Shown here one piece after another: positions 28,063 through 29,881 of a DNA stretch of 64,000 nucleotides (position 1 is the first letter of the stretch; every line of letters starts with the position of its first letter). The notes beneath the pieces were generated by a model that saw only the letters and a list, made by a program, of their open reading frames with translations, was not told where the DNA came from and ran no database searches. This DNA is from Oscillospiraceae bacterium (GTDB lineage Bacteria > Bacillota > Clostridia > Oscillospirales > CAG-272): the NCBI GenBank assembly GCA_015063625.1, contig SVTT01000003.1, positions 54,355 through 118,354 on the forward strand, written 5' to 3'. Position numbers and translations under genes: made by a program.

Positions 28063-29139
28063 ATGGCAAAACGGACAGTCGGCGTGATCGGCGCCACCGG
28101 CATGGTCGGTCAGCGTTTTCTGACCCTGCTTGACAACCACCCTTATTTTGAAGTGACGGCTCTTGCCGCCTCCGCACGCTCGGCGGGCAAGACCTACCGT
28201 GAGGCAGTGGGCGACCGCTGGAAGATGAAAACACCGATGCCAGAGGCATATGCCGACATGAAGGTGATCGACGCCGCAAACATCGAGGAGATGAAGCAGC
28301 GCTGCAATTTCGTCTTTTGCGCCGTCGATATGAAAAAGGAGGACATCCGCGCGCTGGAGGAGGCTTATGCCAAGGCGGAGATCCCCGTGGTTTCCAACAA
28401 CTCGGCACACCGCTGGACGCCCGACGTCCCGATGGTGATCCCCGAGATCAACGACGCCCACCTTGCCGTGATCGAGGCACAGCGCAAGCGCCTCGGCACC
28501 AAGCGTGGCTTTATCGCCGTCAAGCCCAATTGCTCGATCCAGTCCTACGTGCCTGCTCTGACAGCACTGCTGGAGTTTGAGCCCTACGAGATCGTGGCAA
28601 CCACGTATCAAGCCATCTCCGGCGCGGGAAAGACCTTCCGCGAGTGGCCCGAGATGATCGACAACGTCATTCCCTACATCGGCGGCGAGGAGGAGAAGAG
28701 CGAGCAGGAGCCTCTGCGCGTCTGGGGCAAGGTGGAAAAGGGCGAGATCGTCAAGGCGGCGGCACCCGTTATCACCACCCAGTGCATCCGTGTGCCTGTC
28801 AGCGACGGTCACACGGCTGCCGTGTTTGTCAAATTCCGCAAAAAGCCCACCAAGGAGCAGATCCTTGCCGCATGGAAGAGCTTCTCGGGAAAGCCCCAAT
28901 CGCTGGGTCTGCCTCACGCTCCCGAGCAGTTCATCACCTACTTCGAGGAGGATAACCGCCCTCAGGCAGCGCTTGACCGCGATCTTTACGGCGGTATGGG
29001 CGTTTCGGTCGGCAGACTGCGCGAGGACACGGTCTACGACTGGAAGTTCGTAGGTCTTTCTCATAACACCCTGCGCGGCGCGGCGGGCGGCGCTGTGCTG
29101 ATCGCAGAGCTTTTGCACCGCGAGGGCTACTTCGACTGA
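28063..29139 (+). CDS. asd: Aspartate-semialdehyde dehydrogenase
   Basis: GATGMVGQRF, KPNCS, QAISGAG, RVPVSDGH, HNTLRGAAG. Confidence 0.95.
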   Translation: MAKRTVGVIGATGMVGQRFLTLLDNHPYFEVTALAASARSAGKTYREAVGDRWKMKTPMPEAYADMKVIDAANIEEMKQRCNFVFCAVDMKKEDIRALEEAYAKAEIPVVSNNSAHRWTPDVPMVIPEINDAHLAVIEAQRKRLGTKRGFIAVKPNCSIQSYVPALTALLEFEPYEIVATTYQAISGAGKTFREWPEMIDNVIPYIGGEEEKSEQEPLRVWGKVEKGEIVKAAAPVITTQCIRVPVSDGHTAAVFVKFRKKPTKEQILAAWKSFSGKPQSLGLPHAPEQFITYFEEDNRPQAALDRDLYGGMGVSVGRLREDTVYDWKFVGLSHNTLRGAAGGAVLIAELLHREGYFD

Positions 29140-29220: not shown

Positions 29221-29265
29221 AAAGGGGCTGCCTCAAATGCATGTGCATTTGAGGCAGCCCCTTTT
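29221..29265. terminator. Bidirectional intrinsic terminator
   Basis: AAAGGGGCTGCCTCAAATGCA-tg-TGCATTTGAGGCAGCCCCTTTT, a long perfect inverted repeat between asd and the infB operon. Confidence 0.85.
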
Positions 29266-29268
29266 CCT

Positions 29269-29427
29269 TTACCATTCGGGCTCGTCCGGCAGGGCGGGAT
29301 CGCCCGGCTTGGCGGTCTGTCCGCCGCCTTCTCCCGCAGGAGGTGTGTCCACAGAGGAAACAAGGATATCACGAGGCATGATCCAAAAAATTTCAATTGT
29401 CGGCATACGGTACTCGTTTTTCATCAT
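29269..29427 (-). CDS. Small 52-aa peptide with a YxxPxxE...DIL motif
   Basis: Not in the ORF track. MMKNEYRMPTIEIFWIMPRDILVSSVDTPPAGEGGGQTAKPGDPALPDEPEW; RBS GAAGGAGGG; stop lies immediately before the terminator. Confidence 0.72.
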   Translation of the reverse strand: MMKNEYRMPTIEIFWIMPRDILVSSVDTPPAGEGGGQTAKPGDPALPDEPEW

Positions 29428-29455
29428 TTTCCCTCCTTCAGCGCCACAGCACCCA

Positions 29456-29881
29456 TCACTTGATGGCGACGCTCATATTTTTCATGCGCTCCATGGCAGA
29501 GCGAAAAACCGTCTTGTCGTTTTCGTGCGTGAGGCTTTCCTCGGCGATCTCCAACGGGATCCATTCGACCTCGGCGATCTCGCCCTCACGCGCCTTGATA
29601 TTGGCATCGGTGGTAAATGCCAGAAAATACACCACTTCCTTCATGACACCGGGTGTCGGGCTATAGGAAACCGTGGCGCGAAAATCCGAAATAATGGCAA
29701 TACGGGATGCCGTTTCCTCCATGACCTCACGCAGTGCGGTGGCGTATTCGCTCTCGCCCTCCTCCACGTGACCCTTTGGGAAGGAACGGTGTCCTCCCGC
29801 CTTATGACGGATCATCAACACAAAAAATTTTTCTCCCTCGCGGCGCACCACCAGTGCGCCGCAGGATTTTTCCCAGGTCAT
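29456..29881 (-). CDS. NUDIX hydrolase (Ap4A hydrolase-like)
   Basis: EKSCGA; Nudix box FPKGHVEEGESEYATALREVMEET. Confidence 0.9.
   Translation of the reverse strand: MTWEKSCGALVVRREGEKFFVLMIRHKAGGHRSFPKGHVEEGESEYATALREVMEETASRIAIISDFRATVSYSPTPGVMKEVVYFLAFTTDANIKAREGEIAEVEWIPLEIAEESLTHENDKTVFRSAMERMKNMSVAIK

Follow-up and report, generated by a model that had tools for sequence, protein, structure and literature searches.

What does the short open reading frame (ORF) behind the infB-NUDIX operon encode and, if it encodes the peptide precursor that it resembles, where is the machinery that would process it? The ORF lies in a 64,000-nt window, the whole stretch of DNA analysed here, from an Oscillospiraceae bacterium. 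The initial annotation, made from the letters alone, had described a bipartite peptide carrying a YxxP motif of the kind found in lasso-peptide leaders. Judged by its sequence, the 52-aa ORF is a genuine gene and not a chance ORF. We consider it probable that its product is an 'orphan' LPP-type precursor, unlinked to its enzymes, from which a linear phosphorylated RiPP would be made. The LPP type is known from Bacilli such as Paenibacillus alginolyticus, where lppA-K-B-S-D-N specify it (Popov et al., Nat Commun 2026, PMC13381572).

The peptide gene and its family

The ORF, its predicted parts and the elements around it are listed below.

29269..29427, minus strand: predicted LPP-type precursor ORF, 52 aa, span including the stop codon (51 aa from the second ATG)
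29432..29436, minus strand: Shine-Dalgarno GGAGG, spaced 4 nt from the first ATG (29427) and 7 nt from the second (29424)
29456..29881, minus strand: NUDIX hydrolase gene, directly upstream and in the same direction (Pfam NUDIX 3.2e-18; context only)
29359..29427, minus strand: predicted leader M1-V23 (about M2-V23 if the second ATG is used), from invariant K3, Y6, P9 and D20 and analogy with LppA
29401..29412, minus strand: putative RRE-binding Y6-x-x-P9, invariant in the family
29353..29355, minus strand: Ser25, predicted phospho-acceptor, invariant in 49/49 aligned sequences; acceptor role by analogy with LppA
29272..29358, minus strand: predicted core S24-W52, 29 aa, net charge -5; boundary by analogy with LppA
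29272..29301, minus strand: last ten core residues, DPALPDEPEW, kept among syntenic orthologues
29221..29264, no strand assigned: perfect 20-bp hairpin, putative two-way intrinsic terminator, from folding energy and shuffles

The translation of the ORF was identical to that given in the initial annotation. The strong ribosome-binding site (RBS) reported there corresponds to the GGAGG, which is enclosed by GAAGGAGGG at 29431..29439, and the distance of 28 nt to the NUDIX stop codon (29456..29458) was also recovered. The second ATG is the likelier start on sequence grounds, because family members start with MK and the 51-aa form is the one held in public collections. The NUDIX gene itself was found in 37/40 same-genus genomes.

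The hairpin starts 3 nt past the stop codon of the peptide gene. Its free energy was calculated as -46.5 kcal/mol (z = -8.85) on the minus strand and -41.7 kcal/mol on the plus strand, and 0/200 shuffles folded equally well. The U-tract that follows it on the peptide strand is weak (UUUGCUAUG) and that on the opposite strand is better (UUUUCCUUU), suggesting a two-way terminator common to the convergent plus-strand gene that ends at 29139. The perfect hairpin and its distance from the ORF were thus correctly described earlier, with the qualification that the element is shared and weak in its U-tract on the peptide's own strand. The hairpin was not listed by a simple terminator scan, the loop and stem limits of which presumably exclude it.

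Searches with the single sequence returned little. In public collections, a word-indexed search matched only the peptide itself, in its 51-aa form, and a search of the genomes of 60 relatives gave E values of 0.04-0.6 only, the matches of which were inspected by hand. Neither the peptide nor 8 relatives matched Pfam or NCBIfam models, except for one chance match to DUF3720 at E 0.011, and a protein atlas search returned only 'hypothetical protein' clusters at a score of 0.89, below the meaningful level. No paper on the Clostridial peptide family was found in a literature search.

A profile search revealed 468 representative relatives at E<=1e-3, counted after clustering at 50% identity. Almost all are 32-60 aa long and align from residue 1. 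The recurrence of similar mini-proteins in gut Clostridia, stated in the initial annotation, is borne out. The profile recognised the ORF in its own genome at E 1.4e-13, so that the bipartite make-up and the Y..P / DI..S motif lie far above chance. This genome has three family copies, the present one on contig C16 and paralogues on C22 and C26, and the present copy has the best profile score of the three. The initial annotation had named an absence of such homologues or paralogues, together with that of ribosome footprints and peptides, as the result that would speak against it; homologues and paralogues were found, and they keep the N-terminal motif. One further own-genome match (L002:1498-1641 on contig C1, E 0.16) was discarded: it has a TTG start and no RBS, lies in a tandem-repeat region and was absent from the profile search.

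The family consensus is MKxxYxxPxxE(I)x6DI(I)TxS, behind which the tail is acidic and hypervariable, and the motif is present in 145/147 short representatives among the best 150. In an alignment of 49 sequences, the invariant residues are K3, Y6, P9, D20 and S25; columns average 23% identity, and conservation is limited to the first 25 residues. The predicted leader ends with the stretch D20-I21-L22-V23, in which I21 is nearly invariant in the family. The present copy has V23 where 103/145 members have Thr and 4/145 have Val, R19 where Glu is usual, and a spacer with Trp and Pro. Family tails have a median length of 19 aa and a mean net charge of -5.1, often end in an aromatic residue and contain Cys in 5/145 members; the present peptide has none.

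An RBS (a GGAGG-like site) and a terminator were present at 7/7 relatives examined. Downstream of the NUDIX gene, a family peptide occupies the slot in 5/30 same-genus loci (4 of them in the genomes of other species), and the slot is empty or differently occupied in the remaining 25/30. All 5 peptides in this slot share a C-terminus of the DPAxPDxxW type at an overall identity of about 38%. That this end is kept despite such low identity argues for selection on the core. Together, these results suggest that hundreds of unannotated genes of 35-60 aa, carried by Clostridia of gut and rumen, belong to a single precursor family that can be searched for by a simple signature.

A kinase-RRE-peptidase cassette on another contig

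The YxxP motif had been taken to call for a PqqD-like RRE, with processing by machinery encoded elsewhere. The genome contains one discrete PqqD/RRE gene, on contig C10, and this gene is flanked by a kinase gene and a peptidase gene in a single operon.

L021:731-1441: HprK/PEPCK-fold kinase (NCBIfam ScmC/HprK-related matches; structure model)
L021:1441-1704: discrete PqqD-type RRE (Pfam PqqD 3.5e-16; best NCBIfam name lasso_PqqD_Bac)
L021:1688-2161: SipW-type Ser/His/Asp signal-peptidase-like protein, 158 aa (structure match, invariant residues)

The kinase gene ends where the RRE gene begins, and the RRE and peptidase genes overlap. The kinase model (pLDDT 96.8) matched PEPCK and HprK/P structures, and its P-loop residues G101, G103, K104 and T106 are invariant. 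The peptidase has no Pfam match above threshold (Peptidase_S24 at E 0.17). With Foldseek, its model (pLDDT 93.4) matched only structures of the S24/S26 clan, human SEC11C (7p2q_A) first, and its invariant residues are G33-x-S35-M36, H73-R74 and G88-D89; annotation pipelines label such a protein at best 'S24/S26 family peptidase'. No exporter or nucleotidyltransferase gene follows the cassette in this genome, which has two NTP_transf_5 genes elsewhere. All three precursor genes lie off the cassette contig.

A second RRE in the genome was rejected as a partner of the peptide, as it is part of a radical SAM SCIFF maturase that has its own SCIFF peptide alongside. A precursor of the SCIFF/ranthipeptide type was rejected for the same reason and because the present peptide lacks Cys.

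Since the peptide alignment has no conserved stretch of even 7-10 columns, related loci were retrieved by alignment of the kinase. Of 80 kinase loci in public genomes, 53 contained PqqD, 49 an S24-like gene and 13 a family peptide; 27/80 had no PqqD within the flank. The cassette is also present in Ruminococcus flavefaciens strain Y1. These loci yielded 14 peptide matches, compared to about 1.0 expected from family density (~14x). Beside the kinase, the peptide gene usually lies on the same strand and directly upstream, and adjacency was observed in genomes G062, G055, G118, G172, G075 and G213. In other Clostridia, family peptides thus adjoin the cassette; genes near PqqD were among those for which the initial annotation had proposed to look. 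An ABC transporter gene comes after the peptidase gene in 10 of the clustered loci, and 6/13 precursor-bearing cassette loci include NTP_transf_5; some relatives' cassettes add a radical SAM/SPASM enzyme.

Peptide and cassette also co-occur. Among 201 genomes of the order, the kinase was present in 41/44 peptide-positive and 28/157 peptide-negative genomes, figures inflated by relatedness among the genomes. Three of the 44 peptide-positive genomes had no detected kinase, and 28 kinase-positive genomes had no peptide at E<=1e-3. Of the 17 taxonomic families in which peptides occur, 16 have the kinase as well. All of this, from the gene family and its cassette through the protein folds to adjacency and co-occurrence, was observed computationally.

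Binding of the leader by the RRE was addressed by complex prediction. The RRE with peptide residues 1-32 scored 0.46, compared to 0.02 for the best of 3 controls, which passes a mark also passed by 116/157 solved complexes and 2/215 mismatches, in a range (passing scores <=0.60) that holds only 18/157 solved complexes and both of the passing mismatches. The runs agreed in at least 92% of contacts, with a partner pLDDT of at least 59. This model lends weak support to RRE binding of the leader, and the pass may reflect likeness only, since RRE-leader complexes have already been solved. The RRE columns that correspond to N33, D70 and F74 of LppB are conserved or carry conservative replacements. 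The RRE of this genome has His at the position of the Tyr-bonding Asp70 of LppB; among 19 aligned RREs, this column holds D 10 times, H 5 times and another residue 4 times. Two lasso RREs, TbiB1 (5e-10) and TfuB1 (5.4e-9), match the RRE profile better than LppB does (1.4e-4).

Proposed maturation and alternative readings

The following maturation scheme, in which the order of steps, the acceptor and the cleavage position are modelled on published LPP, would account for these observations. The leader (about M2-V23) would bind the RRE (L021:1441-1704) through Y6-x-x-P9 and the following beta-strand, and the RRE would present the bound peptide to the products of the two flanking genes. The HprK/PEPCK-fold kinase (L021:731-1441) would phosphorylate Ser25. 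The SipW-type protein with Ser35, His73 and Asp89 (L021:1688-2161) would remove the leader at or beside V23|S24, D20-I21-L22-V23 being the stretch predicted to be presented to the peptidase, and an acidic core of ~29 residues ending in Trp would be released. The C10 cassette would also serve the paralogous precursors on C22 and C26.

In LPP, leader cleavage is RRE-dependent and performed by a Ser/His/Asp peptidase, LppS (residues S29, H68 and D93). LppA is cleaved after T-1, with a hydrophobic residue (Phe) at -3 and the phospho-Ser at +3, and its conserved Ser just past the cleavage site is polyphosphorylated in an LppK-dependent manner (all as described in PMC13381572). By this analogy, the leader of the present peptide probably extends no further than V23, and the phospho-acceptor is likely to be Ser25, mirroring the LppA Ser. 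A placement of Ser25 as the last leader residue is accordingly less likely. A cut after the invariant Ser would follow the -3/-1 rule of signal peptidases (T/A/S at -3 in 128/145), and cleavage at S25|V26 is possible; this model was demoted in view of the LppS cleavage site and the phosphorylated Ser of LppA given above.

How probable are other readings of the same data? The least probable is that of a chance ORF in G+C-rich DNA between the NUDIX gene and the terminator. The ORF is indeed short, without a Pfam or NCBIfam match, and the single-sequence search found only itself; the profile E value, the 468 related representatives, the RBS, the two paralogues and the syntenic orthologues with conserved ends all speak for a gene, and frame-specific conservation argues against a non-coding repeat. 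Hardly more probable is a paeninodin-type lasso precursor, cyclised by a cyclase encoded elsewhere. The leader does resemble paeninodin-type and rumen lasso leaders of the form MKxW/YxxPxxExL... (Table 3 of PMC7533575), the best NCBIfam names of the RRE are lasso PqqD chaperones, and a Thr two before a small residue, together with downstream acidic residues, could formally fit the lasso rule. However, at 93.7% completeness of the assembly, the best match to the B2 model PF13471 (E 0.03, no match being above cut-off) is a frame with two stop codons, and the lasso cyclase model scored 204 against a cut-off of 525 on the genome's Asn_synthase protein. The only strong PF00733 (Asn_synthase) match is the housekeeping AsnB (TIGR01536, 454 bits compared to a cut-off of 267). 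Neither a lasso cyclase nor B2 was present among 40 neighbouring proteins from the 13 precursor-bearing cassette loci of relatives, and the Bacillota paeninodin-type leaders described in PMC13381572 use WxxP, with RREs that discriminate against YxxP. The RRE that the YxxP motif had called for is present, but the machinery is not of the lasso kind, neither a cyclase nor a transglutaminase-like protease having been found in the genome.

Two readings that accept a real gene deserve more weight, although we regard both as unlikely. According to one, the peptide is a former precursor that is drifting; its gene would be transcribed only because it ends the infB-NUDIX operon, and processing would have ceased. 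Val for Thr at position 23, Arg for the usual Glu at position 19, the spacer with Trp and Pro, the slot that is empty or otherwise occupied in 25/30 same-genus loci and the weak own-strand U-tract are as expected of such decay. An open frame, a strong RBS, all five invariant residues and the best profile score of the three copies are not, and four other species keep the syntenic gene with DPAxPDxxW despite low identity. Slightly more probable, and still unlikely, is a real small protein the N-terminus of which serves another purpose, such as docking or an export tag, and is not a substrate of the cassette; the co-occurrence would then reflect shared gut-Clostridia ancestry. Most copies are unlinked (7/98 peptide matches lie on the kinase contig within about 6 kb), another partner is conceivable at the 18/39 precursor loci where the peptide gene lies 6-35 bp behind a long ORF, 27/80 kinase loci have no nearby PqqD and the RRE-leader prediction is weak. 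What tells against this purpose is the peptide-kinase adjacency at about 14 times chance, usually on the same strand and directly upstream, and the kinase in 16/17 peptide-bearing taxonomic families. In addition, YxxP is an experimentally established ligand of such an RRE type (PMC13381572), and an invariant Ser a few residues past a conserved Thr mirrors LppA. The reading as an unlinked LPP-type precursor is thus the one that we favour.

Upstream hosts of the precursor genes differ: infB-NUDIX here, elsewhere EF-G and RNase H and, very often, giant surface-protein genes, with the precursor gene immediately behind. Rather tentatively, and with more doubt than confidence, we propose that in Clostridia of gut and rumen a single minimal kinase-RRE-peptidase cassette acts in trans on a dispersed, fast-evolving library of precursors located at the 3' ends of unrelated operons. 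If so, production of each phosphorylated acidic peptide would keep pace with expression of its host operon, giving a trans-acting RiPP organisation with multiple substrates, which has not been reported for LPP. More speculatively still, the NUDIX hydrolase might trim a pyrophosphate- or nucleotide-linked Ser on the present peptide. Scattered, multi-copy precursors away from a small cassette are an arrangement that cluster-based genome mining misses by design.

Comparison with known systems

Paeninodin-type phosphorylated lasso peptides of Bacillota, credited to Zhu et al. in 2016 and Zyubko et al. in 2019, reportedly come with a kinase, a B1 RRE, a nucleotidyltransferase and an ABC exporter. 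As far as they have been described, they share with the present family an MKx(Y/W)xxPxxE-type leader to be bound by a discrete PqqD RRE, an HprK-like kinase for a Ser of the precursor, and the same accessory genes. In contrast to them, the present system has neither a cyclase nor a transglutaminase-like B2; its predicted leader peptidase is a serine signal-peptidase-like protein, and its leader motif has Tyr rather than Trp. The pairing of an HprK-like protein with a PqqD-like protein is also seen in Scm and HprK-related-kinase-A cassettes (TIGR04352/04353), and the kinase and the RRE matched ScmC (TIGR04249, 1.3e-9) and ScmD (TIGR04248, 1.8e-4), both below curated cut-offs. Scm cassettes centre on radical SAM/SPASM enzymes and Cys-containing peptides, whereas the present cassette has no radical SAM enzyme and the tails rarely contain Cys. 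The peptidase shares with SipW/SEC11-type (archaeal/ER-type) signal peptidase I its fold and an invariant Ser/His/Asp that replaces the bacterial Ser/Lys dyad. Unlike those enzymes, it is small, its gene forms an operon with those of an RRE and a kinase, and it is predicted to cut an RRE-presented leader, not a secretion signal.

The closest likeness is to LPP as described in PMC13381572. In both, the precursors are short, with a YxxP leader, a conserved Thr closely followed by a conserved Ser, and C-termini that are hypervariable. A discrete PqqD-type RRE is common to both, as are an HprK-like kinase and a SipW-type Ser/His/Asp peptidase, and a macrolactam cyclase is found in neither. S35, H73 and D89 of the present peptidase are set beside S29, H68 and D93 of LppS, LppS and LppK being compared by description. 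An MsbA-like ABC exporter and NTP_transf_5 are also found in many relatives' clusters, although both are absent from the cassette of this genome, which is reduced to K-B-S where LPP adds LppD and LppN. The leaders differ in their spacing. The LPP consensus is YxxPxVLxHQxIxFETxxS; in the YxxPxxE(I)x6DI(I)TxS of the present family, the Tyr-Thr distance is longer by 2 and the Ser stands at +2 from the Thr, not +3, and the hydrophobic residue at -3, the Thr and then the conserved Ser are kept. No LppA leader was matched at E<=10 by the family profile in the PDB sequence set. Cores are short here (median 19 aa) and strongly acidic, whereas the LppA core is 45 aa long and rich in Gly, Asn and Lys. 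Precursors are multi-copy here and mostly unlinked to the enzymes, whereas the LPP precursor is encoded in the cluster. From these sequence features, the assignment to the LPP type is the most likely one, as a form set apart by its leader spacing, its acidic core and its reduced cassette.

LPP was defined from Bacilli only, and Clostridia have 0 occurrences in the main text of PMC13381572. Its Supplementary Data 1 places Clostridial peptidases in clusters #4 and #9, under 'RRE others', with an LPP RRE count of 0 and the precursor given as 'ND'; the short motif of a Ruminococcus peptidase in the supplement had no match among the proteins analysed here. The peptides of the present family likely supply the substrates for such Clostridial kinase-RRE-peptidase cassettes. 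The peptide system that the initial annotation had named as a candidate for an undescribed one is therefore probably only partly so, its kind having been published in 2026; to the Clostridial branch, left open in PMC13381572, the present analysis adds likely precursors.

The peptide gene and its family

The initial annotation had placed a small ORF, read here as a predicted RiPP precursor, 28 nt past the stop of a NUDIX gene and 3 nt ahead of a perfect terminator. On computational analysis both spacings held, and the terminator is a perfect 20-bp hairpin. The ORF translates as MMKNEYRMPTIEIFWIMPRDILVSSVDTPPAGEGGGQTAKPGDPALPDEPEW.

Features around the peptide gene
29139, + strand, end of a convergent 386-aa gene
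29221..29264, 20-bp hairpin
29269..29427, - strand, peptide ORF
29432..29436, - strand, Shine-Dalgarno sequence GGAGG
29456..29881, - strand, NUDIX gene upstream of the peptide (Pfam 3.2e-18)

The Shine-Dalgarno sequence lies 4 nt from the first ATG and 7 nt from the second. The second is the likelier start, because members of the peptide family begin with MK and a 51-aa form is present in public protein collections. The hairpin folds at -46.5 kcal/mol (z = -8.85; none of 200 shuffles folded equally well), and its U-run, weak on the peptide strand, is better on the other one; it is therefore a bidirectional terminator that also serves the convergent gene. Two convergent units end here: a minus-strand unit of a gene that we take to be infB, followed by the NUDIX gene and the peptide, and the plus-strand 386-aa gene, presumably an aspartate-semialdehyde dehydrogenase.

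Single-sequence searches with the peptide returned almost no relatives. Hand inspection of weak genome matches yielded seven small ORFs in related genomes, all with a GGAGG-type ribosome-binding site (RBS), a terminator hairpin of their own and the motif MKxxYxxPxxExxxxxxxDIxxxS followed by an acidic tail. A profile built from the first eight sequences was searched against 1.84 billion proteins (E<=1e-3) and matched 468 representatives; nearly all of them measure 32-60 aa, with the alignment beginning at residue 1. The family has no match among the Pfam or NCBIfam models. Five residues, K3, Y6, P9, D20 and S25, were the same in all 49 sequences of an alignment, and I21 was almost invariant. 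Among the best 150 of the 468 representatives, less three long proteins, 145 of 147 carried the motif. Of these 145, 103 had a Thr two residues ahead of the invariant Ser. Their tails had a median length of 19 aa and a mean net charge of -5.1; Cys occurred in 5/145, an aromatic residue in the last five positions in 94/145 and Trp in 40/145. Besides the copy in the window (contig C16), the genome itself has one on C22 and one on C26; all three come with an RBS and a terminator.

The precursor follows a long ORF at a distance of 6-35 bp, with at least 330 aa of that ORF falling within the locus, at 18 of 39 distinct precursor loci (L006, L012, L029, L031, L035, L037-L040, L042-L044, L048, L050, L054-L056 and L058). 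Four of the 18 ORFs contain Flg_new_2, LRR_5, Big_2 or aBig_2 surface repeats, a 3-keto-disaccharide hydrolase domain occurs in one, and the remaining 13 match nothing in Pfam. The C22 paralogue likewise sits behind a long ORF (at least 487 aa) without a Pfam match. Other upstream genes among the 39 loci include EF-G (three), RNase H (three) and NUDIX (two), and the copy in the window falls within this minority of housekeeping-operon settings. The NUDIX gene was found in 37 of 40 same-genus genomes, with a family peptide downstream in 5 of the 30 loci examined; all five peptides share a C-terminal DPAxPDxxW motif at an overall identity near 38%. The peptide gene is thus accessory and fast-evolving, with both of its ends conserved. 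At L118 (genome G023) and L120 (G020) an 85-aa ORF replaces the YxxP peptide in this slot; it has a lipoprotein-type signal (…LTAFIAC…) and a Gly/Asn/Asp-rich tail ending DPGDWEPQN, which is similar to the acidic cores with terminal Trp seen in the precursor family.

Candidate processing machinery in the genome

We searched all 28 contigs of the assembly (1.76 Mb, 93.7% complete) for PqqD-type leader-binding domains (RREs) and obtained two matches above the cut-off. One is an RRE fused to a radical SAM enzyme that NCBIfam identifies as a SCIFF maturase. It was set aside as a partner of the peptide, since the maturase adjoins a SCIFF peptide of its own, and the two form a complete SCIFF system.

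SCIFF locus, contig C28 (L022)
1223-1405, + strand, SCIFF peptide with six Cys (78.9 bits against TIGR03973)
1468-2841, + strand, SCIFF radical SAM/SPASM maturase (764 bits against TIGR03974)

The other match is a discrete 88-aa PqqD protein on contig C10 (Pfam 3.5e-16; top NCBIfam name, lasso PqqD chaperone), within a three-gene operon whose frames overlap or abut. The kinase of this cassette (237 aa, GTGKST P-loop) matches the NCBIfam ScmC and HprK-related kinases at scores below their cut-offs, and its AlphaFold model (pLDDT 96.8) matches structures of PEP carboxykinase and HprK/P. The third protein, a peptidase-like one of 158 aa, has no Pfam match above threshold. Its alignment shows invariant G33-x-S35-M36, H73-R74 and G88-D89, and its model (pLDDT 93.4) matches S24/S26-clan structures only, with human SEC11C first, followed by lambda cI, LexA, UmuD, SpsB and LepB; some public records name its relatives 'S24/S26 family peptidase'. 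Within the 93.7% complete assembly no transglutaminase-like B2 protease scored above the cut-off, and the sole strong Asn-synthase match is the housekeeping AsnB. A weak look-alike of the peptide on contig C1 was rejected; it abuts three head-to-tail repeats of ~177 bp (L002:897-1559) that show as a thrice-repeated unit of ~59 aa in ORFs of both strands.

We predicted the complex of the cassette RRE with residues 1-32 of the peptide. It scored 0.46, compared to 0.02 for the best of three controls; contacts agreed by at least 92% between runs, and partner pLDDT was at least 59. Of 157 solved complexes, 116 reach the mark that it passed, as do 2 of 215 mismatches; at scores of 0.60 or below, those that reach it are only 18 of the 157, together with both passing mismatches. 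Because solved RRE-leader complexes exist, the pass may reflect likeness only. The modelled complex weakly supports binding of the leader by the RRE.

Association of the peptide family with the cassette

Across 201 genomes of the order, the peptide profile matched 44 (E<=1e-3; 1-9 copies each) and the kinase 69. The kinase was present in 41 of the 44 peptide-positive genomes (exceptions G117, G163 and G177) compared to 28 of the 157 peptide-negative ones, an odds ratio of 63 that ignores the kinship of the genomes and is hence overstated. Sixteen of the 17 taxonomic families with peptides also have the kinase, and a family peptide adjoins the kinase gene in six genomes (G062, G055, G118, G172, G075 and G213).

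A pattern scan of public genomes gave at least 600 matching stretches, the best 80 of which were taken as kinase loci; they come from MAGs labelled Clostridia, Eubacteriales, Oscillospiraceae, Acutalibacteraceae, Ruminococcus or Lachnospiraceae, and from Ruminococcus flavefaciens strain Y1. Among these best 80, a PqqD gene follows the kinase in 53, and an S24-like gene is present in 49. Thirteen have a family peptide in the flank, and in nine it immediately precedes the kinase gene in the same orientation. The 14 matches in total compare with ~1.0 expected in the 0.79 Mb examined (from 98 matches per 78.6 Mb in positive genomes). In 27 of the best 80 the 6 kb around the kinase gene contain neither a PqqD nor an S24-like gene, and housekeeping genes come after it (L137, L139, L140, L143, L144 and L150 among them); either the partners of these HprK-like kinases are encoded elsewhere or the kinases have another role.

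We scanned 40 of the 104 larger ORFs at the 13 precursor-bearing loci, leaving out cassette genes and shadow ORFs. ABC exporters occur at L133, L152, L153, L154, L157 and L174, and NTP_transf_5 nucleotidyltransferases at L153, L157, L159, L174, L182 and L184; no cyclase or B2 protease was found among the 40. At four of the 13 loci, all on contigs of public Clostridia MAGs (L133, L134, L154 and L155), the next gene 3' of the precursor encodes a radical SAM/SPASM protein of the peptide-maturase kind (451-517 aa, without a specific NCBIfam family), which suggests a cross-linked sub-variant. Giant repeat proteins also precede the precursor at the cassette loci L152, L159, L174, L184 and L187.

Comparison with linear polyphosphorylated peptides

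The linear polyphosphorylated peptide (LPP) pathway was defined in Bacilli (Popov et al., Nat Commun 2026, PMC13381572). In that paper, the precursor LppA carries the motif YxxPxVLxHQxIxFETxxS; LppB is a discrete RRE (PDB 9x8z); LppK, an HprK-like kinase, places several phosphates onto Ser3 of the core; and LppS is a SipW-type peptidase (S29/H68/D93) whose cut after Thr-1 requires presentation of the leader by LppB. The clusters described there contain an MsbA-like exporter and an NTP transferase and lack a cyclase. The enzyme set equals that seen here: a kinase, a discrete RRE, a SipW-type peptidase and no cyclase. The paper focuses on its largest similarity cluster, mainly Bacilli, and the terms Clostridia, Ruminococcus, orphan precursors and radical SAM do not occur in its main text. 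Its Supplementary Data 1 places Clostridial peptidases, such as those of an uncultured Ruminococcus, Desulfosporosinus and Anaerocolumna, in clusters #4 and #9, under 'RRE others' with an LPP RRE count of 0 and the precursor ND. By eye, the peptidase of our genome shares the stretches YPRGTSM, FVLHR and GDNQ..EYGIKREQ with the Ruminococcus entry of that supplement.

By analogy with LppA, the leader would span about M2-V23, with Y6 and P9 docking on the RRE and I21-L22-V23 standing in for Phe-3, Glu-2 and Thr-1. The core would then be S24-W52 (29 aa, net charge -5) and the family-invariant Ser25 the phospho-acceptor; both the cleavage and the phosphorylation site are predictions. The RRE profile of the Clostridial cassettes matched four solved RREs.

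RRE profile of Clostridial cassettes against solved RREs
TbiB1, E 5e-10
TfuB1, E 5.4e-9
PbaB1 (9x90), E 1.3e-6
LppB (9x8z), E 1.4e-4

In the Clostridial RRE alignment the columns matching LppB N33 and F74 are conserved. LppB D70 hydrogen-bonds the leader Tyr in the published account (PMC13381572), and the matching column holds D in 10 of 19 sequences, H in five (including our genome) and other residues in four.

Compared to LPP, the spacing from Tyr to Thr is two residues longer in the Clostridial family and the conserved Ser is one residue nearer the Thr. Instead of long cores rich in Gly, Asn and Lys, this family has short acidic ones, and its precursors are scattered. In contrast to LPP clusters, the cassette of our genome has no exporter or nucleotidyltransferase. 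Both NTP_transf_5 genes of the genome are located away from it, one within a membrane-protein ORF of at least 875 aa (C28:54139-54876; L203:1114-3738, - strand) and one in a 389-aa protein beside a 421-aa dehydrogenase-like ORF (C14:25635-26351; L204:1393-2559, + strand). Given these differences in spacing, core, scatter and cassette, we do not class the peptide as a plain member of the LPP group.
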